19,039 nucleotides of DNA, from positions 64,001 through 83,039 of IMG/VR virus record IMGVR_UViG_3300017989_000089. The stretch is one strand, 5' to 3'. Below the pieces are notes generated by a model. That model saw only the letters and a list, made by a program, of their open reading frames with translations, had not been told where the DNA came from and made no database searches. The DNA comes from a virus (lineage: Duplodnaviria; Heunggongvirae; Uroviricota; Caudoviricetes). Position numbers and translations under genes: made by a program. Shown here piece by piece: positions 5,651 through 19,039 of the stretch; within the stretch, counting starts at the first letter, position 1; the number at the start of each line of letters is the position of its first letter.

Positions 5651-6217
5651 TCAATCGATGTAGAAGGGCTCGCCCTCGGGCTCCTGCTCGGCGTTGCGGA
5701 TCTCGTTCCAGAGAACCCGGATTTGGCCGCGGCAAATGGAGTACCCCATTCCTTTGTACTTGATGACCCTGCTGAGGGTCCCAAATGGGAGAATTAGGGG
5801 TGGCATCAGAATGAGGCGGCGACCGGCGAGGTCGTGCCAGAAGTTACGGTGGCACCAGAACTCCTTGGTCGCAAGATCTATGCCAACTGCGGCTACCGTG
5901 AGGTCAAATCCCTCCAGAACCACCTTTATGGAAGGAAAAGTCGGGCCAACAACATCGTAGGTCAGATCCGAGTTGATGATCCAACGCCGAGGCTCGGAGC
6001 CCGCCGACTTCCATTTATCGTCGCCAAGCTGGTCCACAATAATACGCTTCCGCTGCTTCTCGTCCTTTACGAAGACGTCGACATCCTTGGGCTCTTCCCG
6101 GGCGAATAGGCGGCGCAGGGCTCCCCCACATACCCATCCTTCCTCGATCTCGAGCCCGCTGATGAACCAGTCGAGTCGCTCTTTGACGTGGGGTGGTAAG
6201 GTCTGTTTTTCTATCAT
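5651..6217 (-). CDS. class II nucleotidyltransferase (CCA-adding enzyme / poly(A) polymerase head domain)
   Basis: GGALRRLF...KDVDVF matches the GGxxR...DxD signature; FDLTVAAVG resembles the (R/F)DFT motif; C-terminal RxxKY..GY. Confidence 0.8.
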   Translation of the reverse strand: MIEKQTLPPHVKERLDWFISGLEIEEGWVCGGALRRLFAREEPKDVDVFVKDEKQRKRIIVDQLGDDKWKSAGSEPRRWIINSDLTYDVVGPTFPSIKVVLEGFDLTVAAVGIDLATKEFWCHRNFWHDLAGRRLILMPPLILPFGTLSRVIKYKGMGYSICRGQIRVLWNEIRNAEQEPEGEPFYID

Positions 6218-8981: not shown

Positions 8982-9271
8982 TGCTCACTCACGTAGTTGA
9001 ACCCCACGCATTCCTCGATCTGCGCTGGTAGGTTCCCGAACTCCGCACCGAAGCGGCAGAAATGATCCCTGATTCTCGAGCAACCTAGGCATGTCTTGAA
9101 GGTCGACCATTCGTCTTCCCATTTGCCGGTGACGTGGTGGTAGCTCTCCCCGGGCTCGATGGTGCGATCACATTCGCAACACGTGTGCTCTTTTCGAGCC
9201 TTACGCATCTCCTCGTGGTAGACATCAGGTAGGACGTCAACTTCGATCGAGCAATCGCATGAGATGATCAT
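8978..9271 (-). CDS. Zn-binding phage protein
   Basis: RKARKEHTCCEC...PGE.Y...G.W...KTCLGC. Confidence 0.8.
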   Translation of the reverse strand: MIISCDCSIEVDVLPDVYHEEMRKARKEHTCCECDRTIEPGESYHHVTGKWEDEWSTFKTCLGCSRIRDHFCRFGAEFGNLPAQIEECVGFNYVSEQ

Positions 9272-9447
9272 TCAGGTTCTCCATACACAGGGAACACTTC
9301 TACACCTTCCACGAAGAACCTGTTCCCAATATTCGGTTCTGATTCTCTACACTTCTTACAGTATCGTCGTCCCTTACCCAAGCCGGACTTGACCTCTTCA
9401 ACTACTCTACGCTTCCTGCACTTGTAACAAGTGCCACGCTTTTTCAT
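9268..9447 (-). CDS. Zn-finger hypothetical protein
   Basis: TAATG overlap places start at 9447; CYKC...CKKC. Confidence 0.7.
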   Translation of the reverse strand: MKKRGTCYKCRKRRVVEEVKSGLGKGRRYCKKCRESEPNIGNRFFVEGVEVFPVYGEPE

Positions 9448-9638
9448 TACCACACCCTCTTCCCGCAATTCACACACACCCCATTACGGCACAGGTTATG
9501 TTGGCACATCTCCGGCCTGTTGCGAAGCTCTTTGATCTCCAACAGCAGACGATGGATATATGACTTCGGTACTTCGGTTGGCTCGCCTGTATCCGGAAAG
9601 ATCTCCAGGTCTTCTTCCAGCTGCTTATCACTTATCAT
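9447..9638 (-). CDS. hypothetical protein with Cys/His C-terminus
   Basis: GAGG RBS before ATG 9638; CQH...C...CVNC. Confidence 0.65.
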   Translation of the reverse strand: MISDKQLEEDLEIFPDTGEPTEVPKSYIHRLLLEIKELRNRPEMCQHNLCRNGVCVNCGKRVW

Positions 9639-9822
9639 ACTTAACCTCTTGTATGGTCTTCTCGTAGGGGAGCCCGGTGTTCTCTGCGATCTCCTTGCGT
9701 TGCCTATCAAGGAACTTCTTGGCCTTTTGAAGCACTCGACGATCGTGTCCTTGTTTGCAATCGCACTTTTCCGGGTGCCTCTTTCGTGCCCCACAGCCTG
9801 GGTCATGCGCGCTTTTTGTCAT
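9628..9822 (-). CDS. hypothetical protein
   Basis: 64 aa; H..C...H..CxC. Confidence 0.6.
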   Translation of the reverse strand: MTKSAHDPGCGARKRHPEKCDCKQGHDRRVLQKAKKFLDRQRKEIAENTGLPYEKTIQEVKYDK

Positions 9823-10003
9823 TGGCTCTATAGCTCCCGTTCCACATCCATACTTGCATGAGACGAATGTGATAAATCTTCCATGCTATGCGCTGGCGTA
9901 GCTCGTGGGTCATGTTGTGCCCCATCAGATAATTCGCCAAGCGCAACTTGGCGCGCTCGAACCTATTGACACGCTCTTCGTAATCAGGGATTGCTGTTGG
10001 CAT
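9803..10003 (-). CDS. hypothetical protein
   Basis: GAGGGAG RBS before ATG 10003. Confidence 0.65.
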   Translation of the reverse strand: MPTAIPDYEERVNRFERAKLRLANYLMGHNMTHELRQRIAWKIYHIRLMQVWMWNGSYRANDKKRA

Positions 10004-10178
10004 CAGGCTCCCTCGTGAATGTACGACCATGCCACTCGTTTACTTCGTACTCTAACTCGAAGTTGTCGTGGCGTAGCTTACACTCTAGCTCGTTTAGTGT
10101 GTCGAGGATGATTGATCGAAGCTTGTCGGCGTATGCGATGTGATAGCTAACCTTCAAATGTACTCGGTTCATTATCAA
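9984..10178 (-). CDS. hypothetical protein
   Basis: GAGG RBS, ATGA-coupled. Confidence 0.65.
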   Translation of the reverse strand: MIMNRVHLKVSYHIAYADKLRSIILDTLNELECKLRHDNFELEYEVNEWHGRTFTREPDANSNP

Positions 10179-10357
10179 TCCCTCTCATAGACGAGCCAGG
10201 TGACGAACACGACGATACACGTGAGAAATGCTCCACCGAAGATCTCGATCGGCACCACCTTTGTTATAGAGTTCATGAGGATCAGCAAAGCGACCATCGA
10301 CAACACGAGCACAGTCGTGAAGAAGATCGATTTCAGCAGTGCTTTCATGAGCTTCAT
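10175..10357 (-). CDS. small membrane protein (2 TM)
   Basis: Two hydrophobic helices; GGAGAG RBS; ATGA-coupled. Confidence 0.7.
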   Translation of the reverse strand: MKLMKALLKSIFFTTVLVLSMVALLILMNSITKVVPIEIFGGAFLTCIVVFVTWLVYERD

Positions 10358-10527
10358 ATATCATCTCTCCTTGCCTCGGCGCAGTCGTCGCACCACCACT
10401 CCTTCCCGTATGGTCTGCCCTCGGGGAACACCTCTCGCAGGAACGGATCCTCGATGAGAGTGCATTGCCTCAGCTTCGAACACCGAGAGCACTTCACCCA
10501 TTTGTAGGTGTAGTCGTCTTCGCTCAT
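10354..10527 (-). CDS. Zn-binding hypothetical protein
   Basis: TAATG overlap; CSRC...CDDC. Confidence 0.7.
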   Translation of the reverse strand: MSEDDYTYKWVKCSRCSKLRQCTLIEDPFLREVFPEGRPYGKEWWCDDCAEARRDDI

Positions 10528-10910
10528 TACTGGGCTAGGATCACGTAATAAGGCATCCCACCTGGGAGCGCGGCCCACACCGCTCTCGGAAGCAGGCACT
10601 TCACCGCACCGATTGCGAGCCCGAGTAGGAACAGCTGCTCCATGCTTCGGTGCTCGCCGGTCCATTGGTTTCCGTGCTTGTCTTCACACGCCTGCAGGAA
10701 TGACCAGCCGCCCCCACTCTTCTCTTTGAACGTATCGGGAAGCTCGTCGAGCATCTGTCGGATCTCGTCCTTGTAGTTGCTCAGGCGATCGGGGTGGAAG
10801 CCGACGTTTGTCACGATGCCCTCGGCCTTGACGTAGTTCGTTTTGTCCTCATCCTCTTTGAAGAGGCAGTCTCTGAAAACCTCGTCCACTCGTTTGGCAG
10901 TAAGCTCCAT
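10527..10910 (-). CDS. conserved hypothetical phage protein
   Basis: GGGWSFL.AC.DK.GNQWTG.H..ME.L...LPGGMPY motif recalled as a widespread phage/bacterial hypothetical (unverified). Confidence 0.85.
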   Translation of the reverse strand: MELTAKRVDEVFRDCLFKEDEDKTNYVKAEGIVTNVGFHPDRLSNYKDEIRQMLDELPDTFKEKSGGGWSFLQACEDKHGNQWTGEHRSMEQLFLLGLAIGAVKCLLPRAVWAALPGGMPYYVILAQ

Positions 10911-11159
10911 TCAATCCTCCAATGGCGGTTCGTTTGTTTTGCCGAAGAGCCACATTGCGAAGTCGTGGATGCCTTCTTCGTAACGTTCGTAGAAGGCTCC
11001 GTTGGGGGCTCGGGATTCCTCGGCGAGTTCTAGGACCTTGGCGATTTGCTCAGGTGTGCGTCTGACGGTGTAGTCACCCTGCCGGAGGCTCTCGGCTATG
11101 GTCTCGAGGCTCTGGGCGATTCGCTCAGCTAGCTCTTGTTGGTACGGTGTCAATTCCAT
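10911..11159 (-). CDS. hypothetical protein
   Basis: AAGGAG RBS, 82 aa. Confidence 0.75.
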   Translation of the reverse strand: MELTPYQQELAERIAQSLETIAESLRQGDYTVRRTPEQIAKVLELAEESRAPNGAFYERYEEGIHDFAMWLFGKTNEPPLED

Positions 11160-11168
11160 GCTATCTCC

Positions 11169-11345
11169 TTAGTAGACGGCGCAATTGGGCCAAGACCTCT
11201 TGATGCGCTCGACTAAAATGAACCCAGAGATCCATTCGAGGCTCTCGAGGTCGGGGTCATCGTCCGCTAGCTCCGGGTAAGCAAGCCCGCAGGTGCAGAT
11301 AGCCCACTCGCCTCCGAAATCACAATAAGGACAGTATCTTCGCAT
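11169..11345 (-). CDS. 58-aa Cys-containing protein (not in ORF track)
   Basis: MRRYCPYCDFGGEWAICTCG...; lies directly after tandem promoters. Confidence 0.6.
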   Translation of the reverse strand: MRRYCPYCDFGGEWAICTCGLAYPELADDDPDLESLEWISGFILVERIKRSWPNCAVY

Positions 11346-11351
11346 ACCTTA

Positions 11352-11380
11352 GGTCTATCATACTCTGGCTCGGATGTCAA
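11352..11380 (-). promoter_or_regulatory. sigma70-type leftward promoter
   Basis: TTGACA, 17 bp ending TATGa, TAGACC. Confidence 0.55.
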
Positions 11381-11405
11381 CCTAGGCGGTCAGTAAGCAA
11401 GTCGC

Positions 11406-11434
11406 TCTATACCATACTTTACCGGCGATGTCAA
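11406..11434 (-). promoter_or_regulatory. sigma70-type leftward promoter
   Basis: TTGACA, 17 bp ending TATGg, TATAGA. Confidence 0.65.
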
Positions 11435-11626
11435 GGAGAACCTAGGCGGGTAGGATGACTGCAAAAATTGCAGGTGGCGTGCTGGAGGTTGCCTCTGGGG
11501 GCGCAGCCGCTGGCTCCCCAAATGTAGGGAAAAGCCCCCGTGGGGATTCCCCTACGTGGTGAATAACACGCACCGCTAAGTGCTTGATACGCAACGACTT
11601 ACGAGGACTGGCATGCTTCTTGATCC

Positions 11627-11660
11627 TGGCATGCTATATGCATAAGCAAGCTCTATGCCA
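11627..11660. promoter_or_regulatory. convergent pair of sigma54-type -24/-12 motifs
   Basis: TGGCATGCTATATGCA (+) and TGGCATAGAGCTTGCT (-), both GG-N10-GC. Confidence 0.55.
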
Positions 11661-11952
11661 CTATGCCATAGCCTAGGCCACCCATAAGCTATAGATAATA
11701 AAGGATTTATTTCGATACGCAATTATTGCAGTATATCCCATAAGTACTTTATTTATAACTACTTATAGGTACCCCCCTATATAAGGCCTTTATATACAGT
11801 ACTTTACAGCCCCTATGGTATATCCCCTACACGCTATTCGGGTATTCCCTACATAGGGTAATATCCCCTCACCTTCGCCCTATGTATGCTTACCGTATGG
11901 TTAGTAGCATCATACGTATAGCTATAAGTACTTTAATTGCAATAGTTTAGGC

Positions 11953-11985
11953 TGGCACGGATATTGCTATGCAAAGCCCATGCCA
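11953..11985. promoter_or_regulatory. convergent pair of sigma54-type -24/-12 motifs
   Basis: TGGCACGGATATTGCT (+, consensus) and TGGCATGGGCTTTGCA (-). Confidence 0.65.
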
Positions 11986-13054
11986 ATAGGGTGTGGGGAT
12001 ATCCCCATGGGGGGAAAAACACATGTAGTGCTTCCCCCACGGTGGGGCAACGTCTTCCCCTCTCCCCGCTGCAATATATGCGCAATAAGCGTATAAAGCT
12101 CCCCTATGGGAGCGGGGGAGCAAGGGGGAGCGACATACGGGGGATCCGAGGGGGAGCGGGTAAGCTCAAGTTATACTTTAGGGGATATAGGGGGAAAATA
12201 AAATATCCCCGATCTTTTTGCTTGACAAAAGCGATATTATGTTATCCCCTTTATTATCAATAAGTTATAGAAAATAGTGTATCCCATATATGAGCTTGTA
12301 ACTTATTCAAAATAAAAAGCTTATTTTCCGCTTTCAAAATAGCGATATGAGAGCTTTATTTTCCCCTTTCTATGGAATAATAAGGATATTTTATTTCGGA
12401 GCTTTAAAAGCGAAATATGAGCTTCCGTATCTTATAGAAAATAAATAAGTTACAGAAATCTCGAGATCCAATATATTGGATGGCACGATCCTTGATCTTG
12501 GATCGCTCCCCTATGGTATTTTCCCCGCTTTAAAAAAGATCGATCTTTTTTGCTTGACAAAGGGGGATCCGTATGCTCCCGGGAGAGAGCGATCGAGCGG
12601 AGAGGGATCCCGGGATCGAGGGGGAGCGGGATCGGGGGATCGTCGCTCCGAGCTTCGGGGAGCTTTCGCGGATCTCGGGATCTCCCGCTGTCGGGATCTC
12701 GCTCTCGGGGGATCTCGGGGATCTCCGCTCTCGGGGGAGCTTCCGCGGGGGAGAGCTTCGGGGGAGCTTCGGATCTCTCCCCTTATATTGATACAAGCGG
12801 GGGATCGAGCGGGATCGGGGGATCTTTCCCCCGCAAGATCGCGGGATCTCGAGAAAATACGCTTATCTCATTTATTTTCTGTAACTTATGAGCGATCCGA
12901 GAGCGAGGGGAAGATCCCCCTTTATTACGCTTGCATAATGCCAAAATAAGGGATAAAATCGGATCGAAGCTCGGAGAGCGGAGCGGGTAAAATGAGAAAA
13001 GCTTTATTTTGCAATAAGTTACAAGCGATAAAAAAGCTCCCGCTTTGGCTCATT

Positions 13055-13072
13055 TTGGCAAGATCATTGCAT
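13055..13072 (+). promoter_or_regulatory. sigma54-type promoter upstream of the rightward cluster
   Basis: TTGGCAAGATCATTGCAT (GG 13057-58, GC 13069-70); IHF-like site at 13009-13021; first ATG at 13111. Confidence 0.65.
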
Positions 13073-13110
13073 ATTAGATCGACATAATGAGAGAGAAAGG
13101 GGAAAGCAAA

Positions 13111-13356
13111 ATGAGAACAAGCGAGGGATACGAAGGGATCGGGATCGAGGGAAGCGACAGCATAGAAACGATCGAGCGGAAAAAAGCGGAAGCTCGGATC
13201 GCGGGGATCGAGCTTGAGCTTTCGGATCTTTGGCTCATGAAAAACGAAGCTCTCTCCCACGGGATCACGGGATCGAGCGACATAAGAGCTTGCATGAGGG
13301 ATCGCAAGATCGAAGCTTTGGAGCGGGAGCTTTTCGAGCTTTGCTCGATCGTATAA
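13111..13356 (+). CDS. helical hypothetical protein, first gene of the island
   Basis: GGGGAAAGCAAAATG start; 81 aa. Confidence 0.7.
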   Translation: MRTSEGYEGIGIEGSDSIETIERKKAEARIAGIELELSDLWLMKNEALSHGITGSSDIRACMRDRKIEALERELFELCSIV

Positions 13357-13388
13357 GCGGAGCGGAGAGCTTGAGCAAACGGGAAACG

Positions 13389-13434
13389 AAAGCGGGAGCG
13401 GGGAGCGGAAAGCTTCCCCTCTCGCTTTTTGCTT
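13389..13434 (+). terminator. intrinsic terminator-like hairpin
   Basis: ~14-bp GC stem with GGAAA loop followed by TTTTTGCTTT. Confidence 0.55.
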
Positions 13435-13475
13435 TGCATGAGGGGGAAGCAACGGATCGAAGCTTTGGCAAGTTT

Positions 13476-13530
13476 CGGAGCTTTGCGGGGGAGCGAGGGA
13501 GCGGATCTCTCGCTCCCGATCAAAGCTTCG
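13476..13530 (+). other. intergenic RNA hairpin, copy 1 (possible processing site)
   Basis: CGGAGCTTTG/CAAAGCTTCG outer stem, CGG/GAT internal loop, 12-bp inner stem. Confidence 0.6.
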
Positions 13531-13562
13531 CAAGCGACAGCGGAGCGGAGAAAGGGGGAAGC

Positions 13563-13730
13563 ATGAGAGAGGGGAAGCGGAGCAACGGGAAGCGGGGAGA
13601 GCTTATATCGCTCCCGCTTTTTGTCGCTTTGTACGGGGAAGCTCCAAAGCTCCGAGAGAGGGAGCGGAGCGAGCAACGGAGCGATCTTGAAAAGCGGAAG
13701 ATCGCGATCATGTTAAGGGGGAAAGCATGA
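13563..13730 (+). CDS. 55-aa hypothetical protein
   Basis: AAAGGGGGAAGCATG start; TGA overlaps ATG 13727. Confidence 0.55.
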   Translation: MREGKRSNGKRGELISLPLFVALYGEAPKLRERERSEQRSDLEKRKIAIMLRGKA

Positions 13731-15001
13731 GGGAGCAACGGGAAGATCGGATCGTTGAATTGACGATCCCTTATTACTCGATCGAAAGCTTCGAGAGCGA
13801 GATCAAGCGGATCAACGATCGCTTGAGAAAGAAAGGGATCGAAACTCGGATCTTTGCTTTGAAAGGGGAGAGCAAGCTCCGCAAGATCGAAACTCCCACG
13901 GGAAAAGAGATCAAGATCGAAGCAACGGATTTTAGGATCTTGCTCCCCGAGATCAAGCTTCCGGGATCGTGGGAGCTTATCGGAGCTTTGGATCATGAGA
14001 GCGGGGGAGATCTTGCGATCGTCAAAAGCTTACCCGGGAGAGCGGAGCTTCCCGCGGAGTTTCGGAAAGTAAGCTCTCTCCGTTGCGATCATTGCAAGCG
14101 GAGCATACGGAGAAAAGATACTTTCGCGATCCAAAGCGGGGAAACGGGGGAGATCTTGATCGTTGGGAGATCTTGCATAGCAGATTATCTCGGGATCGAT
14201 CCCTCGGGAGCTTTGTACGTTTATGATCTATACGATCGCTTGTATAAGCTCTTTTCCGAAGCGGAAGATCCCGAGCTTGAGAGCTTCGGGGGATCGTATC
14301 GCGGGATCGTTGCTTATCCCGCGGGAGAGTTTCTCGAATATTCCGCAACGGTGATCCGCTCGATCGGATATTGCTCCAAAGCGAAAGCGGAAGATCTCCA
14401 AACGATCCCGACAGCGGATCTTATATGGGATCTCATGCTTTCGGGAGAGCGGGAGAGAGCGAAGCGGGAAGCGGATCTAGGGATCAAAGCTTCCGAAGAT
14501 CATGATCTTGAGCTTGCGCAAAGCTCGATCGTTTGGTTATTCCAGCGGGAAGCGGGAGAGCTTGAGCGATCGGAGTATCTCCGAAACTTGCAAACGATCG
14601 CGGAAGCGGGGATCGCAACGTATAAGACTAAGGGATACTTAGCAAGCTTGATCTCCGTATATCTCCGCGATCATGCAAAGCAAGCGGAGAGGGAAGCGGA
14701 GCGAGAGCGGGGGAAAGCTTCGGAGCATATCGGATCGAAAGGGGAGCGGAAGCGGGGGATCATGTTAACGATCCGCTCGATCCGATATTTTGAGGGATAT
14801 TACGGAGCGACATACTTAGTCAAGCTCTCGGATCCCGCTGGCAACGATCTAACATGGTTCGGATCGTACGATCCGCAAGATCGGGGATACGCGATCGGGG
14901 AAACTTACAAAGCGGATTTTACGATCAAAGATCACGATACATATAAGGGATCCAAGCAAACGAAGATCAATAGAGTAAGCTTTTCGAAAGCTCAAGTTTA
15001 A
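13727..15001 (+). CDS. phage protein with Zn-binding CDHC...C motif and predicted C-terminal OB-fold
   Basis: 424 aa; RCDHCKRSIRRK...TGE...VGRSC..DYLG; C-terminal SEHIG..GER...YG...D..GN.L.W...IK.H..YKG.KQT.I.RV. Confidence 0.85.
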   Translation: MREQREDRIVELTIPYYSIESFESEIKRINDRLRKKGIETRIFALKGESKLRKIETPTGKEIKIEATDFRILLPEIKLPGSWELIGALDHESGGDLAIVKSLPGRAELPAEFRKVSSLRCDHCKRSIRRKDTFAIQSGETGEILIVGRSCIADYLGIDPSGALYVYDLYDRLYKLFSEAEDPELESFGGSYRGIVAYPAGEFLEYSATVIRSIGYCSKAKAEDLQTIPTADLIWDLMLSGERERAKREADLGIKASEDHDLELAQSSIVWLFQREAGELERSEYLRNLQTIAEAGIATYKTKGYLASLISVYLRDHAKQAEREAERERGKASEHIGSKGERKRGIMLTIRSIRYFEGYYGATYLVKLSDPAGNDLTWFGSYDPQDRGYAIGETYKADFTIKDHDTYKGSKQTKINRVSFSKAQV

Positions 15002-15007
15002 CGAAGC

Positions 15008-15033
15008 GGGGGAGCGGAGAGATCCGCTCTCCC
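15008..15033 (+). other. intergenic GNRA-capped hairpin
   Basis: 11-bp stem GGGGGAGCGGA/TCCGCTCTCCC with GAGA loop. Confidence 0.5.
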
Positions 15034-15051
15034 CCTAACAAAGGGGGAAGC

Positions 15052-15267
15052 ATGAAAGTTAAAGGGATCGATCGTTGCGAAGCTTGCGGAGAGAGCTTGA
15101 TCGCGGGTATATGCGGATCTTGCTTGATCGTCGCTTTCGCGGAGCGGGAGAGCAAAGCGAAGCTCGATCGCTTCCGCTGTCGGGAAGCTCGGAAGCTCAA
15201 GCGGGGATCGAAGCAACGGAGAGCGGAGAGAGCGACAGCGGGGATCGTTTGGGAGCGGAGATCATGA
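15052..15267 (+). CDS. Zn-finger basic protein
   Basis: CEAC...CGSC; stereotyped start. Confidence 0.7.
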   Translation: MKVKGIDRCEACGESLIAGICGSCLIVAFAERESKAKLDRFRCREARKLKRGSKQRRAERATAGIVWERRS

Positions 15268-15773
15268 GAGCGGGAAAAGCGGAAGCGGGAGATCTCTCCC
15301 GGAAGCGATACGCTTTCAACTATAGGATCGCTTTGATCCGAGAGCGGGGAGAGGGGATCGAGCTTCCCCCGCTCCGCGATCCCTCGGAAGCTTTGCGGGG
15401 AGCGAGATACTTTCATGATCCCGAAGCGGATCGGGAGATCTTCGCGATCTTGATCTTGAATACCCGTAATAAGATCGTAGGGTATAACGTGATCTCGATC
15501 GGGAGCTTAAACGGATCGCTTGTATCTCCGCGGGAGCTTTTTAAAACCGCGATCCTAGCAAACGGAGCGGGGATCATTATGATCCATAATCACCCAAGCG
15601 GGGATCCGCTTCCCTCTCGGGAAGATCGGGAGCTTACAAAGCGGATCAAGCAAGCGGGGGAGATCCTAGGGATCGAGATCTTGGATCATATCATCCTAGG
15701 GGAAGCTCCCGACAGCGGGAGAGAGCAAGCGGGGGAAACTTACTTGAGTTTCAAAGAAGCGGGGATCCTGTAA
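15264..15773 (+). CDS. radC: RadC-like JAB/MPN-domain protein
   Basis: E...LNTRN...G.LN.S.V.PRELFK.A...HNHPSGDPLPSRED...LDHII...Y.SF.E.G; start 15264 by ATGA coupling. Confidence 0.92.
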   Translation: MRAGKAEAGDLSRKRYAFNYRIALIRERGEGIELPPLRDPSEALRGARYFHDPEADREIFAILILNTRNKIVGYNVISIGSLNGSLVSPRELFKTAILANGAGIIMIHNHPSGDPLPSREDRELTKRIKQAGEILGIEILDHIILGEAPDSGREQAGETYLSFKEAGIL

Positions 15774-15787
15774 CAAAGGGGGAAAGC

Positions 15788-15949
15788 ATGAGGGAGATCA
15801 AGTTTCAATATAGAAACGAAAGCGGAGAGCTTGCGGAGCTTCGGATCTTGACAGCGGAAGATCAACGGGGGATCGAGCTTTGGATCCCTACGGAGCAAGC
15901 GGGAGAGATCTTCGAGCTTTTGAGAGGGGGATCAAAATGGCTCGCTTGA
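15788..15949 (+). CDS. 53-aa hypothetical protein (not in ORF track)
   Basis: AAAGGGGGAAAGCATG start; MREIKFQYRNESGELAELRILTAEDQRGIELWIP... Confidence 0.7.
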   Translation: MREIKFQYRNESGELAELRILTAEDQRGIELWIPTEQAGEIFELLRGGSKWLA

Positions 15950-16305
15950 AAAGCAACGGGATCGAGATCTTGAGACTAACACGGGAAACGGTAAAAAGCG
16001 GGTATACAAGCGGAGCGGAACTTTGCTTGCGCTATACCGTTTCGATCCGAAGCAACGGAGCGATCATGATCAAGCGGGATCACTATTGGAGCGATCTAGA
16101 TCATAAGTACAAAGCGGGATCGTGGAAACGGGAGAGCAAGCTCCCCGCTTCGCTTTGGAGCAAGATCGATCGCGTAGCATGGATCGAGGGGAAGCGGATC
16201 GCTCTCGAAGCTCGGGGATATAAGATCGAAACTCCCGAGAGCGAGAGAGCGGATCTCTATAATTATGTCGCTTGTAACTATGATCGCGGGGGGAAACTAA
16301 AATGA
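15937..16305 (+). CDS. hypothetical protein
   Basis: GAGGGGG RBS before ATG 15937; 122 aa. Confidence 0.8.
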   Translation: MARLKSNGIEILRLTRETVKSGYTSGAELCLRYTVSIRSNGAIMIKRDHYWSDLDHKYKAGSWKRESKLPASLWSKIDRVAWIEGKRIALEARGYKIETPESERADLYNYVACNYDRGGKLK

Positions 16306-16523
16306 GGGAAACTTGGGAGCAAGCGAAAGCGGAGCAACGGAGAGAGCGAGAGAAAGCGGGGAAGCTCTCCGATCAAAATATCTTTTATGTATACGGGTAT
16401 ATGATCGGAGCTTTGAAAGGGAAGCTCTCGAAGCAAGGGATCGAGCTTTCGGGATCGGATCTCGGGAAGCTCGAAGCGGAAGCGATCCGAGCTTACAAAG
16501 CGGATCGCCAGCGGATCTATTGA
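16302..16523 (+). CDS. hypothetical protein
   Basis: GGGGG RBS, ATGA-coupled. Confidence 0.75.
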   Translation: MRETWEQAKAEQRREREKAGKLSDQNIFYVYGYMIGALKGKLSKQGIELSGSDLGKLEAEAIRAYKADRQRIY

Positions 16524-16534
16524 AAGGGGGAAGC

Positions 16535-16723
16535 ATGAAAGGGGAAACTCGGGAGTTTCGGATCGTTTGGGAGATAGATCTCTCCGCGGAGAGCTTCGAG
16601 CAAGCGGGGGATCTCGCTTTGGAGATCCAACGGGATCCCGCTTCGATCGCAACGGTATTTAAGATCACGGATCAAGCAACGGGGGAAACTCGGGAGCTTG
16701 ATCTTTCAAAGGGGGAAGCATGA
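16535..16723 (+). CDS. 62-aa hypothetical phage protein
   Basis: Stereotyped start; FRIVWEIDL.A.S.E.A...A.EIQRDP.SIATVF motif. Confidence 0.8.
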   Translation: MKGETREFRIVWEIDLSAESFEQAGDLALEIQRDPASIATVFKITDQATGETRELDLSKGEA

Positions 16724-17007
16724 GCGAAGCGACAGCGGAGAAAAGCGGGAATATAGATCGGGAGCTTTTGATCCGTATGATCGGAGCGACGATCGAAGCT
16801 TCCCCGATCCCGTTGACAGCGGGATCCGTGTTACGCTTGATCGAGCGGATCAACGGGGAGCGGATCGCTTCCCGATCAACGATCCAACGGATCCTAGATA
16901 GCAAAGCGGAAGCGGGGGAGATCTCGATCATTAATGAGACGATCGAGATCAACGGATATATAAAGCAAGCTCGAAAGTACAAGCGAAAGGGAAACGGGGA
17001 AGCATGA
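16720..17007 (+). CDS. hypothetical protein, possibly winged-helix DNA-binding
   Basis: Helix-helix-SRSTIQRIL-helix then beta hairpin and basic tail (pattern only). Confidence 0.7.
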   Translation: MSEATAEKSGNIDRELLIRMIGATIEASPIPLTAGSVLRLIERINGERIASRSTIQRILDSKAEAGEISIINETIEINGYIKQARKYKRKGNGEA

Positions 17008-17375
17008 GCGAGATCATGATCATAGAAAAGCTCGGGATCCGCTTGCGGATCGAGCTTCGAAAGAAACGGAGCGGGGAAAAGCTCCGCGGGATCAAAGGGG
17101 GAAAGCGTATCAACGGGGAGCGATCGATCCCGTATGCTTTCCGCTTAGTATGGAAACGGGGAAGCGACAGCGGGAGCGGGAGCTTCCGATCCCCTCTCGA
17201 AGCGATCGCTTTTTGCGAGAGATACGGGATCGCTTTCGGAGCGATAAGCGGGGATCATTATTACTCGGAATATACAGCGGGGGAAGCTCTCCCCGCTCGA
17301 TCCGAGCAATATAGGGGATCCAAAGCGGAGCGGGAAGCTTTGGATCGTTGGAAAAGAGAAAGGGGGAAAGCATGA
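17004..17375 (+). CDS. basic hypothetical protein
   Basis: Stereotyped ATGA junctions at both ends. Confidence 0.75.
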   Translation: MSEIMIIEKLGIRLRIELRKKRSGEKLRGIKGGKRINGERSIPYAFRLVWKRGSDSGSGSFRSPLEAIAFCERYGIAFGAISGDHYYSEYTAGEALPARSEQYRGSKAEREALDRWKRERGKA

Positions 17376-17812
17376 GGGATCATTATAGGGATCAACGGAT
17401 CAAAGATCTCGGATCCGATCTTTGGAGCTTTGTTTTTAACATGCTAGATCGGGAGCTTGATCTTTGCTCAAGCTCTCAAGCGGGAGCGATCGCCAGCGGA
17501 GCGGAGCGGAGCTTTCGAGCTTACTTGAGCGATCGGGATCATACTTATGATCTCGGGGATCGCTCCCGGGAGCTTGCGGGATCTTGGATCAATGGTAACT
17601 TGAGCGATACGATCGAAGCTCTCCAAAATGAGATCCCGATCGTCGCTTGCTCCCTCGCTTTGCGGATCGCTTTCGAGCTTCCCGCGGGGGATCGAAACTT
17701 GTTTTTTAATAAGCTCCGAGAGCGGAGCTTCGAGCTTTTGAGGGAGCATAAGCTTTGCGATCGCTCCGAGCTTTCGAAGCGATACGGGATCGAGGGAGAG
17801 GGGGAAGCATGA
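17372..17812 (+). CDS. helical hypothetical protein
   Basis: Start 17372 by GGGGGAAAGCATGA junction. Confidence 0.8.
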   Translation: MRDHYRDQRIKDLGSDLWSFVFNMLDRELDLCSSSQAGAIASGAERSFRAYLSDRDHTYDLGDRSRELAGSWINGNLSDTIEALQNEIPIVACSLALRIAFELPAGDRNLFFNKLRERSFELLREHKLCDRSELSKRYGIEGEGEA

Positions 17813-18057
17813 TCACGAAAAGCGAGAGCGAGATATTAGATCGGATCTTGTACGCAAGCGAGAGGGGAAAGCTTTGCTTGATCGAAACGGAGAGCGACAG
17901 CGGGGATCGAGCGATCTTGATCGCGGGGATCGATCGGGATCCCTTTAACGGGGAGATCTTGATCGCTCCGTTTGCTTGCTTGCTCGATCCCGAAGATCCT
18001 ACAAAGGGATATAAAGATCCCGCTTCTTTGCTTGAGCGGGGAGAGGGGGAAGCATGA
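17809..18057 (+). CDS. hypothetical protein (DUF6117-like by recall, unverified)
   Basis: G.LCLIE....SGD.AILIA...PFA.LLD..P...Y..P. Confidence 0.75.
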   Translation: MITKSESEILDRILYASERGKLCLIETESDSGDRAILIAGIDRDPFNGEILIAPFACLLDPEDPTKGYKDPASLLERGEGEA

Positions 18058-18347
18058 GCTTTTTGCTACGTTGCGATCGTTGCGGAGCGGAGTATAAAAG
18101 AAAGTATCCCGCTCGAAGCGATACGCTTATGTTATACGCTTGCCAGCGGAGATCTTGCGGGGGATCGTTGATCTTGATCCCTCTCTCCGAGCTTTGGAAA
18201 CGGAGAGCGGATCAACTAAGGGAAGCGAGAGCGGGAGAGATCAATAGTACTCCGCTCCCGGAAGCGGAGAGCAAAGCGATCAATGATCGCCTAATGAGGG
18301 AAGCGGGGAGCTTTTCGGAGCTTCGCAAGCGAAAGGGGGAAGCATGA
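18054..18347 (+). CDS. Zn-ribbon protein
   Basis: CDRC...CQRRSC. Confidence 0.75.
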   Translation: MSFLLRCDRCGAEYKRKYPARSDTLMLYACQRRSCGGSLILIPLSELWKRRADQLREARAGEINSTPLPEAESKAINDRLMREAGSFSELRKRKGEA

Positions 18348-18601
18348 TCGAAAGTAAGTACAAGCGGGAAGCTCGAAGCATGATCCGAGATCTCAAGCGG
18401 AAAGCGGAAGCTCTCGATCGGAAGATCGCGAAGCTCGAAGCGGGAGAGGGAGCTTTAACGATCCGTTGCTTAAACGAAGCTCAAGAGATCAACGGGATCG
18501 CGGGGGATATTGAGAAAGCGATCGGGATCGCGATCAACGTACGGAGAGCGACAGCGGAGATCTTGAAAGCGGAGCGAGAGAAAAGAAAGGGGGAAGCATG
18601 A
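18344..18601 (+). CDS. coiled-coil hypothetical protein
   Basis: Heptad-like helix; stereotyped junctions. Confidence 0.75.
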   Translation: MIESKYKREARSMIRDLKRKAEALDRKIAKLEAGEGALTIRCLNEAQEINGIAGDIEKAIGIAINVRRATAEILKAEREKRKGEA

Positions 18602-18849
18602 GAAACGGGGAAGATCCAAACGGAGCATATAGGATTTTAGTTCGGGATAGTTCGGAGAGCTTCGCGGGAAACGGGATCAAGTTTAAAGATCCCGCTTCCG
18701 CCAAAGCATACGGGATCGATCTTGCTTCCCGTTGGTTAGCAGTAAGATCGATCGCGATCGTAAAATCGGATCTTGCTCCCGACATAAGGGGAGCTTTCTT
18801 TTCCGAGAGCTTGATCGAAGCGGAAGCGATCGAGATCATAAAGTACTAA
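18598..18849 (+). CDS. hypothetical phage protein
   Basis: DSS..F.GNGI.F.....A..Y..DL..RW.AVR motif. Confidence 0.8.
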   Translation: MRNGEDPNGAYRILVRDSSESFAGNGIKFKDPASAKAYGIDLASRWLAVRSIAIVKSDLAPDIRGAFFSESLIEAEAIEIIKY

Positions 18850-18862
18850 GCTCGGAGCAAGA

Positions 18863-18930
18863 TCGGATCGGGATCTTTGCGGGGAGCTTCGGGGGAGATC
18901 TCCGAAGCTCCGATCAAAGCTTCCGATCGG
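18863..18930 (+). other. intergenic RNA hairpin, copy 2 (possible processing site)
   Basis: CTTTG-CGG-GGAGCTTCGG...CCGAAGCTCC-GAT-CAAAG, same scaffold as 13476-13530. Confidence 0.6.
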
Positions 18931-18958
18931 GGGAGCTTGCAAACGAAAGGGGGAAAGC

Positions 18959-19039
18959 ATGAGCGAGAAACGATCGATCGAGATCTCGGAGAGCGAGAGG
19001 GAGCTTTTGCGATCCGCGATAGAAAGCTTTTGCGGAGAT
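18959..19039 (+). CDS. 5' end of a hypothetical protein (runs off the window)
   Basis: AAAGGGGGAAAGCATG then open frame MSEKRSIEISESERELLRSAIESF... Confidence 0.7.
   Translation, partial: MSEKRSIEISESERELLRSAIESFCGD

Follow-up and report, generated by a model that had tools for sequence, protein, structure and literature searches.

A block of approximately 9.8 kb in the genome of an uncultured tailed phage was found to be written in a restricted DNA vocabulary, saturated with GATC and purged of GNC, CWG and most short palindromes. It was analyzed in a window of 19,039 nucleotides, that is, bases 64,001-83,039 of the 83,039-nt IMG/VR record IMGVR_UViG_3300017989_000089. With a probability of roughly 55%, we attribute the block to extreme restriction avoidance in an early-exposed module, in which GATC protected by a Dam methyltransferase of the phage serves as a safe word. 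This explanation takes GATC to be methylated, restriction to be the selecting agent, and the block to enter the cell, or to be exposed, first. The block would then be the most extreme case found in which a phage conceals a single segment of its genome from the defenses of the host.

Between window positions 12,471 and 19,039, GATC occurs 289 times, which corresponds to 44.0 per kb compared with 8.9 per kb in the other 75 kb of the record, and to one copy every 22.7 nt (median spacing, 17). GNC is reduced to ~6 per kb compared with 56 per kb elsewhere, and CWG to ~3.5 compared with 32 per kb. In 500-nt segments of 12,501-19,000, 14-27 GATC, 1-7 GNC and 0-3 CWG were counted, compared with 1-6, 20-42 and 7-22, respectively, in the left arm of the window. 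The saturation with GATC and the near-absence of GNC and CWG, which an earlier note had described by reading the letters, are thus confirmed by counting. The same applies to AGCT (17.1 per kb compared with 4.1 elsewhere in the record) and TCGA (12.0 compared with 7.5), both of which it had called common. CATG, named in the same list, is not really enriched (4.6 compared with 3.8 per kb), and its copies come from a repeated GCATGA start cassette. GGCC, GGNCC, GCNGC, CCWGG and GANTC, which had not been noticed in the block on reading, have zero copies each; at the rate seen elsewhere in the genome, 41 GANTC, 40 GCNGC and 23 GGNCC were expected.

The list of purged words given in the earlier note was right as far as it went but incomplete. 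GTG/CAC and ACC/GGT are likewise nearly gone, and several longer words fall far below the expectation from their sub-words: GCGC (2 compared with 35 expected from trinucleotides), CCGG (7 compared with 39), GATG/CATC (2 compared with 75), GAAC/GTTC (5 compared with 32), GGAGG/CCTCC (0 compared with 14) and GAGCTC (0 compared with 17.6). Of the 64 hexamer palindromes, 31 are missing. The 4-mer entropy is 6.96 bits in the block and 7.87 bits in the rest of the genome, and 18 of the 136 reverse-complement 4-mer classes cover half of the block 4-mers, where 51 are needed elsewhere. Among the retained words, GATC reaches ~12-fold its expectation from base composition. It is retained as the bare 4-mer; complementary flanks were found in 25% of the copies, which is the chance value, and there is no longer palindrome. 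AGCT is kept as RAGCTY, never as GAGCTC, and AGCGG/CCGCT is kept as well. As many as 72% of the TCGA copies overlap GATC, compared with 20% elsewhere. The GC skew of the block is +0.2, a strong purine skew.

The bias acts on double-stranded DNA and is not a codon preference. After synonymous shuffling, with the proteins and the block codon pool held fixed, 137 ± 7 GATC were obtained compared with 245 observed (z = +15.5), and 164 ± 7.5 GNC compared with 33 observed (z = −17.5). Because the bias survives this shuffling, it is located at codon junctions; in the block genes, Asp (GAT) nearly always precedes a codon starting with C. The non-coding portion of the block (1.5 kb) shows this profile too, with 35 GATC, 12 GNC and 3.3 CWG per kb. 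Log enrichments of words and of their reverse complements are correlated with r = 0.89 for both 3-mers and 4-mers. The spacing of GATC shows the 3-nt codon period only, and helical phasing is absent. Two statements of the earlier note, that coding and non-coding DNA are affected alike and that codon preference is not the cause, are therefore supported.

The record was joined to contigs of the same phage from other assemblies (L126, L227, L224 and L220); a further contig, L120, belongs to a related phage. A chain of 100%-identical overlaps leads from the window through L126, L227, L224 and L220 to base 1 of the record, and the full-genome map closes via these contigs as a circle of ~115.9 kb. 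The record (CheckV 87%) lacks ~33 kb of it, including the end of the block and genes for a Dam methyltransferase, a PolA-UDG fusion, a PIF1 helicase, NDK, MazG and a dCMP deaminase. In window coordinates, the purge sets in at ~12,070 and the GATC saturation at ~12,465. The block continues past 19,039 for 273 nt and then over L227:1-~2,870. Since it ends at ~L227:2,870, its whole length is ~9.8 kb, equal to 8.4% of the map; it contains 413 GATC and 21 genes, every one of them on the + strand. Both edges, which the earlier note had proposed to define, could be set. The block of more than 6.5 kb that the earlier note saw from position 12,500 is real, but it runs on beyond 19,039, where the window ends at a mere assembly break. 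The terminal position proposed there was not upheld, as the block lies inside the closed map.

No other stretch of such composition occurs in the 83-kb record or in another 29 kb of this genome. These 29 kb lie beyond the block, have normal composition, continue to the record start, and carry small genes and genes for NDK, MazG, dCMP deaminase, an RNase T-like exonuclease, a PIF1-type helicase, the Dam methyltransferase and the PolA-UDG fusion. Non-coding DNA of 1.4-1.7 kb lies on either side of the block genes. The left junction is found both in the IMG/VR record and in an ENA contig of 83,289 nt, three contigs from different samples contain the right one, and the phage was found again at 99.98-100% identity in sediment and seawater runs of several studies. 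A chimera is very unlikely because both junctions sit on independent assemblies.

IMG/VR lists no end repeats for the record. The depth of Logan contigs (window 9,000-19,039) was 6-7 in the block and 9-10 in the adjoining arm, or ~0.7x, in three of four runs; in the fourth run, of low coverage, the block depth was ~1.7x. Positions 12,314-12,465 were uncovered among the Logan contig pieces listed for the four runs. A terminal repeat, the other placement considered in the earlier note, does not agree with a depth of ~0.7x instead of 2x in three of the runs. The low depth may be due to libraries biased against this DNA, to its modification, or to genomes without the block. At the other end of the record, a gene of 342 residues (L220:17,286-18,314) runs across record base 1 and matched the transposase-annotated phrog_4285 with E = 1.6e-15. 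Two assemblies break at this gene, and the gene content nearby is not the same in all samples (in L214, a Band_7 gene has been replaced).

The related phage carries a block of its own at the same place. L120 encodes a homologue of the 424-residue block protein with 47% identity, followed by RadC, small genes and GP88 in the same gene order, and its left flank is homologous, has normal composition, and is joined to its own block (L120:1,200-11,147, >10 kb). This second block has another restricted vocabulary, with a 4-mer entropy of 7.42 bits. GATC (23 per kb, z = 14 over codon shuffles) and AGCT (z = 12) are enriched, CGGCGG is loaded as well, and GAGCTC occurs 82 times (z = 14.7, 4-fold over codon shuffles), often within CCGAGCTCGG or GGGAGCTCCC. 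GCGC, CCGG, AGCC/GGCT, GCCC/GGGC and GATG/CATC are purged, and GNC is only mildly reduced. The 82 copies of GAGCTC stand against none in all 116 kb of the phage studied here, a contrast between related genomes that should reflect the enzymes of the hosts or the phages' own methylases. Distant homologues of the 424-residue protein (23-32% identity) at 80 IMG/VR loci lie in DNA of ordinary composition. Because L120 has its own block and the distant loci are ordinary, the property belongs to this genome position in this lineage. The restricted vocabulary is thus not tied to the gene family or to a donor, and the forbidden set shifts between lineages, as expected for differing host defense repertoires.

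Database searches yielded no further example. Neither the block nor the left arm DNA matched any of 50,697 GenBank phages, and no close relative of the 424-residue protein was found in IMG/VR, either with the protein itself or with the L120 protein. A two-sequence profile of the family gave no match in JGI metagenomes. IMG/VR, searched for exact copies of the start cassette, returned single chance matches only, the conserved flank word GAACCTAGGCGGGYAGG gave 61 chance matches in metagenomes, none of them GATC-dense, and words from the contig ends found nothing in IMG/VR. The few IMG/VR loci with at least 20 GATC per kb are GC-rich and otherwise normal.

The phage carries signs of restriction pressure outside the block as well. 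Seven hexamer palindromes (GCCGGC, AGCGCT, GAGCTC, GGCGCC, CGCGCG, CGGCCG and GTGCAC) are wholly absent from the other 104 kb, made up of record bases 1-75,300 together with L227, L224 and L220, where 12-26 copies of each are expected. As judged from the word counts, this is classical restriction avoidance and a clear imprint of host Type II restriction systems, which suggests that the phage lives under restriction pressure. The block itself has the marks of restriction avoidance, since its palindromes lie below sub-word expectation and the depletion is the same on both strands and in coding and non-coding DNA. GATC and TCGA are the two most common 4-nt palindromes genome-wide, at ~2x the expectation from base composition (2.2x for GATC).

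A search for phage methyltransferases, proposed in the earlier note for GATC and AGCT, yielded a candidate for GATC only. A Dam-family methyltransferase of 164 residues is encoded outside the 83-kb record (L220:10266-10760), on contigs that overlap it at 100% identity. It matched PF05869 with 108.1 bits (cut-off 28.1, E = 4.8e-31) and phrog_111 (E = 8.6e-50), and its catalytic motif, NPPYG of the (D/N)PPY type, is intact. The founding member of PF05869, the Dam of phage T1, methylates GATC. The record itself contains no PF02086, PF05869, PF01555 or PF00145 methyltransferase, and no AGCT or TCGA methyltransferase was found by searches with PF02086, PF01555 and PF00145 and in the Pfam lists of the other contigs. 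By analogy with its family, the phage Dam presumably methylates GATC before packaging. If it does, the block would carry ~826 methyl-adenines in packaged DNA, and overlapping TCGA, ATCGAT and TCNGA sites would be masked; enzymes of the TaqI, ClaI and Hpy188I types are blocked by overlapping Dam methylation.

Avoidance accounts for much of the GATC excess and for most of the AGCT excess, but not for all GATC. In avoidance-only simulations with the proteins held fixed, the trinucleotide set of the earlier note gave ~100 GATC, data-driven lists of up to 124 depleted 4-mers without GAT or ATC gave 105-170, and a broader post hoc list (depleted trinucleotides plus CCGG and GCGC) gave 160-202, compared with 245 observed. 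The excess, which might have disappeared under trinucleotide avoidance, therefore persists, and the combination of a purge with a positive load of GATC that the earlier note proposed is supported.

The price of the recoding is approximately 1 bit of 4-mer information, the loss of Val, Thr and Pro, and an altered ribosome-binding site. Block proteins contain 1.9% Val, 3.2% Thr and 2.5% Pro, compared with 6.4, 6.7 and 5.2% in the rest, and Ile, Arg, Glu, Lys and Ser are raised. In the family of the 424-residue protein, Val is kept at 2 of 14 conserved Val columns. The Shine-Dalgarno sequence is GGGGG instead of GGAGG, which has 0 copies compared with 16 in shuffles. The start cassette of the block is AAAGGGGGAA(A)GCATG, and the first gene past the block has AAGGAGGA. 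With ARAGORN, 27 phage tRNAs were detected (record 36,000-64,500; L295, L296), which read 88% of the block codons compared with 74% elsewhere. Avoidance of phage-tRNA-dependent codons in the block was considered and rejected, since the opposite holds. Gly-UCC, Arg-CCG, Ser-GCU/CGA, Leu-CAA/GAG and Glu-CUC match codons preferred in the block; none of them reads Val, Cys or Pro, and the block is most depleted in two of these amino acids, Val and Pro. This suggests that the tRNA set has become adapted to the vocabulary, which was imposed on the DNA. Transcripts or single strands of the block have more stable folds than shuffled sequences (mean z −2.3 compared with ~0), as expected from the number of short palindromes they contain.

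One 8-mer, GACAGCGG, escapes the purge. The copies in the window are located as follows.

13536, 14410, 15234, 15711, 15850, 16731, 16815, 17166, 17896 and 18550, + strand: GACAGCGG, 10 copies
12685 and 15174, − strand: GACAGCGG, 2 copies

The whole block, with more copies on L227, has 16 + and 4 − copies, compared with 3 in the remaining 104 kb. Coding DNA holds 9 copies, where codon shuffles give 0.47, and the copies lie in two reading frames. It is the one word that keeps the otherwise purged GAC and CAG, and it accounts for ~40% of the residual GNC and CWG. Like a Chi site, it is an over-represented, orientation-biased 8-mer. Candidate functions are a Chi-like site, given its 3′ end AGCGG, a primase start site (template CTGTC), or a target of a phage enzyme. 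AGCGG, which resembles the Chi of Bacillus subtilis, is enriched on both strands as part of the block vocabulary.

In the explanation by restriction avoidance, the block would be a module of early or host-takeover type, with 21 small genes on one strand and uniform strong start cassettes, in a tRNA-rich genome of ~116 kb. Selection by sequence-specific host nucleases, chiefly restriction-modification systems, would have rewritten its double-stranded DNA, and nearly every short palindrome and many 3-5-nt cores would have been lost at the expense of amino acids and of the Shine-Dalgarno sequence. A small set of safe words would be left, with GATC foremost, methylated by the phage's own Dam-family enzyme before packaging and thereby masking overlapping sites too. 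A mutation from a targeted into a protected word would never be penalized again, and because of this ratchet GATC would accumulate beyond the level reached by avoidance only. The block would be exposed to host nucleases before the counter-defenses of the phage act, like the first-step-transfer DNA of T5 and the leading region of T7-type phages. A purge down to 3-5 nt in the block only, with hexamers purged genome-wide, would be expected from such an order of exposure.

Several points weigh against this explanation. No purged word could be matched to an enzyme. The purge of 3-nt words (GNC and CWG) is broader than any single classical restriction site, so that many systems or a different agent would be needed. 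Early exposure alone would not require the genome-wide loss of seven hexamers. The specificity of the Dam for GATC is assumed from its family, as is the methylation of GATC, and AGCT (as RAGCTY) is enriched too, with no matching methyltransferase among the families searched. The map closes as a circle, and the depth of ~0.7x speaks against a long terminal repeat of the T5 kind. Finally, none of the 20 block proteins that were scanned against Pfam and PHROG matched A1, A2 or dmp of T5 or a known anti-restriction protein.

In a more far-reaching version, which we regard as possible but hold only tentatively, the block would be the vanguard of staged entry in a lineage unrelated to T5. It would be written in a private, lineage-specific dialect from which nearly all words usable by sequence-directed nucleases have been removed and which is actively filled with self-methylated palindromes, GATC here and GATC plus GAGCTC in L120, and to which the tRNAs and the Shine-Dalgarno sequence have co-adapted so that it can still be translated. 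Saturation with methyl marks would then be the shield itself and not a by-product.

The same purge could also protect the phage against an enzyme of its own, which appears unlikely. One or more frequent-cutting nucleases of GNC/CWG-type specificity would destroy host DNA early, so that the block must lack their sites while the remaining phage DNA would enter or gain protection afterwards. Chlorella viruses encode frequent cutters with 2-4-nt sites, and the extension of the purge to 3-nt words, too short for ordinary restriction sites, and the richness of the block in orphan proteins are consistent with such an enzyme. In T5-like phages, host DNA is degraded during first-step transfer, and it is stated to be unclear how the DNA of the phage escapes meanwhile (PMC10644984). 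However, the Pfam and PHROG scans revealed no nuclease domain in any block protein, and the purged set is large and mixed (4-, 5- and 6-nt palindromes as well as GATG, GAAC and GGAGG) and differs between the two related phages, which is easier to reconcile with numerous, changing enemies from outside than with a single conserved enzyme of the phage. Staged entry would be required here just as in the favored explanation. No more probable is a positive function of the GATC array as an epigenetic timer or protein lattice, where depletion is the by-product of filling the DNA with GATC, AGCT and AGCGG; discrimination between parental and hemimethylated DNA, SeqA-like binding, and titration of host Dam, SeqA or MutH are conceivable roles. 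GATC lies above every avoidance-only model, the 4-fold excess of GAGCTC over codon shuffles in L120 is hard to obtain by avoidance alone, block single strands fold stably, and the density equals that of oriC in Escherichia coli. An array of this kind does not explain GCGC, CCGG, GAGCTC and GGAGG far below sub-word expectation or the genome-wide loss of seven hexamers, and GATC has neither helical phasing beside the codon period nor palindromy beyond the 4-mer.

Mutation could shape a region without selection on words, for instance through deaminase or repair bias under heavy early transcription or single-stranded exposure. A single transcription unit with a strong purine skew and equal composition in coding and non-coding DNA would agree with this, which we nevertheless consider very improbable: transcription-linked damage is strand-asymmetric, whereas the depletion is symmetric; simple C-to-T products such as GGT are depleted too; specific palindromes are missing beyond lower-order composition; GACAGCGG is retained 20 times with its forbidden GAC and CAG; and the forbidden sets of the two related phages differ. 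An assembly chimera, or a recent insertion from a donor with this composition genome-wide, deserves still less credence. The composition changes abruptly at both edges, and the Logan contigs are fragmented in the block at a depth of 0.7x, but the junctions recur on several assemblies with 100%-identical overlaps, the phage recurs nearly unchanged in several studies, L120 joins a homologous normal flank to its own block, and no donor-like genome was found in GenBank phages, IMG/VR or metagenomes. The separate donor that the earlier note had named as fatal to its idea was thus not found. Least probable of all is selection at the level of translation or mRNA, by tRNA-matched codons or by avoidance of the sites of mRNA-cutting toxins. 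The phage tRNAs do favor block codons, and the lack of Val and Pro tRNAs coincides with the strongest depletion, but the bias persists after synonymous shuffling, sits at codon junctions, and affects non-coding DNA as well as the two strands to an equal extent. As for the tRNA match, adaptation of the tRNAs to a vocabulary imposed on DNA is the better reading. The results on symmetry, junctions and shuffles contradict regional mutation, a chimera and translational selection.

The features in the window that belong to the block and its left border are listed below.

11400-12069, no strand: left outer flank, non-coding, of normal word usage, with inverted-repeat motifs and AT-rich repeats (sequence read and motif scan)
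12070-13086, + strand: non-coding leader in the block vocabulary (word counts)
12465-19039, no strand: the window's share of the GATC-saturated block, purged of GNC, CWG and palindromes (word counts)
13087-13356, + strand: first block gene, 89 residues, acidic, no family (also called in independent assemblies)
13341-13730, + strand: gene of 129 residues with a TTG start according to another assembly, start uncertain (includes a 55-residue ATG open reading frame at 13,563-13,730)
13727-15001, + strand: conserved phage protein of 424 residues, phrog_2319 (PHROG E = 4.3e-68)
15052-15267, + strand: basic zinc-ribbon-like protein of 71 residues (CxxC...CxxC) with a perfect start cassette upstream
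15264-15773, + strand: RadC-like JAB/MPN protein with an HNHPSG motif (PF04002, E = 1.1e-36; phrog_10276, E = 1.2e-33)
15788-18849, + strand: eleven tightly packed small genes of 53-146 residues, mostly with ATGA stop/start overlaps and the cassette AAAGGGGGAA(A)GCATG
15788-15949, 15937-16305, 16302-16523, 16535-16723, 16720-17007 and 17004-17375, + strand: small genes 1-6 of the eleven
17372-17812, 17809-18057, 18054-18347, 18344-18601 and 18598-18849, + strand: small genes 7-11 of the eleven
18959-19039, + strand: acidic gene of 133 residues, cut by the record end and complete in L126:844-1245

The left outer flank is homologous to L120:60-200. Just outside both block ends, inverted repeats of ~16 nt, GT(A/G)GGG-N4-6-CCC(C/T)AC with the spacer AAAA or ATAT, are arranged in arrays at window positions 11,520-12,060 (for example at 11,540 and 11,993) and, in at least 5 copies, at L227:2,900-3,110. 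These arrays could be sites for one bracketing protein or an analogue of the T5 injection stop signal. A sigma54-type −24/−12 element TGGCACG-N4-TTGC (CTGGCACGGATATTGCT, a near-perfect match) is located at ~11,953-11,968, with others at ~12,482 and ~13,055. Matches to sigma70-type promoters at both borders were not above the shuffled expectation, and TTGACA elements picked by eye near the borders were discarded for wrong spacers. The leader contains the twin elements GATCTTTTTGCTTGACAAA at ~12,210 and ~12,537 and a purine-rich field of GGGGATC/GGGAGCT repeats at 12,560-12,850, and the inner right end of the block is a pyrimidine-rich mirror of this purine-rich leader.

The AlphaFold model of the 424-residue protein (pLDDT 81) shows an N-terminal beta domain, a CxxC...C zinc segment, a helical middle part and a C-terminal OB-fold-like barrel. 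In a Foldseek search with the model, the top matches were the OB folds of SSB, PrgE (from plasmid pCF10) and RPA, which are weak (E = 4e-3), and a PDB sequence search with the family profile returned nothing meaningful. Given the zinc motif and the OB-fold-like barrel of the model, the protein probably binds nucleic acid. The start of the RadC-like gene is uncertain, with 15,075 or 15,111 used by other callers. Family matches among the eleven small genes are weak only (DUF6117, E = 0.0036; phrog_20551, E = 1e-5). The block gene set as a whole includes the RadC-like JAB protein, the OB-fold/zinc protein and GP88.

Among known systems, T5 offers the closest comparison in layout. Phages like T5 and BF23 are restricted only via sites in the first-step-transfer DNA, so that sites are selected out there (PMC10644984). 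The T5 first-step-transfer segment, which is the terminal repeat, comprises 10,219 of 121,750 bp (8.4%), compared with ~9.8 of ~116 kb here, and both genomes are tRNA-rich, of ~110-120 kb, with a segment rich in small genes whose functions are not known. The first-step-transfer DNA of T5 is followed by the injection stop signal, at least ~1 kb of non-coding, repeat-rich DNA, and then by small early genes and a tRNA array; the present block likewise adjoins long repeat-rich non-coding DNA, with flanks of 1.4-1.7 kb, near small genes and a tRNA array. However, there is no sequence relationship, the best polymerase matches among cultured phages being <30% identical, and no A1, A2 or dmp homologue was found in the 20 proteins scanned. 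The T5 segment has a 4-mer entropy of 7.74 bits, 2.6 GATC per kb and a mild loss of hexamer palindromes, compared with 6.96 bits and 42 GATC per kb here. It is a terminal repeat, whereas neither a terminus nor doubled depth was seen here, and T5-like phages actively avoid Dam methylation, whereas the phage studied carries a Dam.

Leading regions of plasmids typically carry genes for RadC-like and SSB/OB-fold proteins. In T7-like phages (Autographiviridae, e.g. Murciavirus), the first-injected region decides how sensitive they are to Type I restriction-modification, and these phages share with the leading regions of conjugative plasmids a restriction pressure on a first-entering segment with anti-defense genes (PMC12455610). 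Restriction affects T7-like phages only via sites in that region. In these cases, single Type I or Type II motifs are present or absent; nothing comes close to a purge at 3-5 nt, a rewriting of amino acids and Shine-Dalgarno sequences, or a loading with one palindrome, and plasmid leading regions are reported not to be consistently depleted in 4-8-bp palindromes (PMC13478746). Classical palindrome avoidance in phages is also strand-symmetric and below Markov expectation, and the rest of the present genome is its textbook form, but it is usually genome-wide and concerns few sites at no cost to proteins. Here 8% of a genome is affected, most 4-6-nt palindromes and several trinucleotides are lost, and the surviving palindromes are enriched.

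An over-representation of GATC in subcluster B3 mycobacteriophages was left unexplained by its authors (PMC4841201). It is ~4-fold, genome-wide and driven by GGATCC, whereas the present one is ~12-fold, regional, not extended to a hexamer, and accompanied by an own Dam. The Dam itself resembles the orphan enzymes of other phages (T1-type PF05869, and the Dam of T4 and P1) in being a small N6-adenine methyltransferase with (D/N)PPY, encoded among replication genes. Orphan Dam enzymes of phages are thought to protect DNA from GATC-related restriction. Known Dam carriers have not been reported to concentrate GATC in one region. The earlier note had not recognized the saturation strategy as described. 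Indeed, no block so extreme or so loaded with GATC was found in the literature searched, but first-entering DNA free of sites has been published (PMC10644984 and PMC12455610). The regional purge at the trinucleotide level combined with saturation by one palindrome, for which that literature holds no description, is therefore regarded as an extreme form of a known principle and not as a new category.

The block amounts to a natural experiment that tests to what extent DNA may be rewritten to evade sequence-specific defenses and yet encode working proteins. Drawn from the sequence of an uncultured phage, it lends support to a view put forward recently, according to which restriction pressure bears on that part of a genome which is exposed first. 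Low word entropy in a sliding window may serve to find such segments, and with them entry polarity and early anti-defense genes, in metagenomic phages. The list of purged and tolerated words would be a readable imprint of the defense repertoire met, and a comparison of the two dialects may help to trace its evolution. DNA for transforming restriction-proficient, hard-to-engineer laboratory bacteria could also be designed along the lines of this vocabulary.

In the left arm of the window, a gene of 188 residues at 5,651-6,217 on the − strand has a precomputed Pfam match to Gad2 (PF26128), a family named after a Gabija anti-defense protein.

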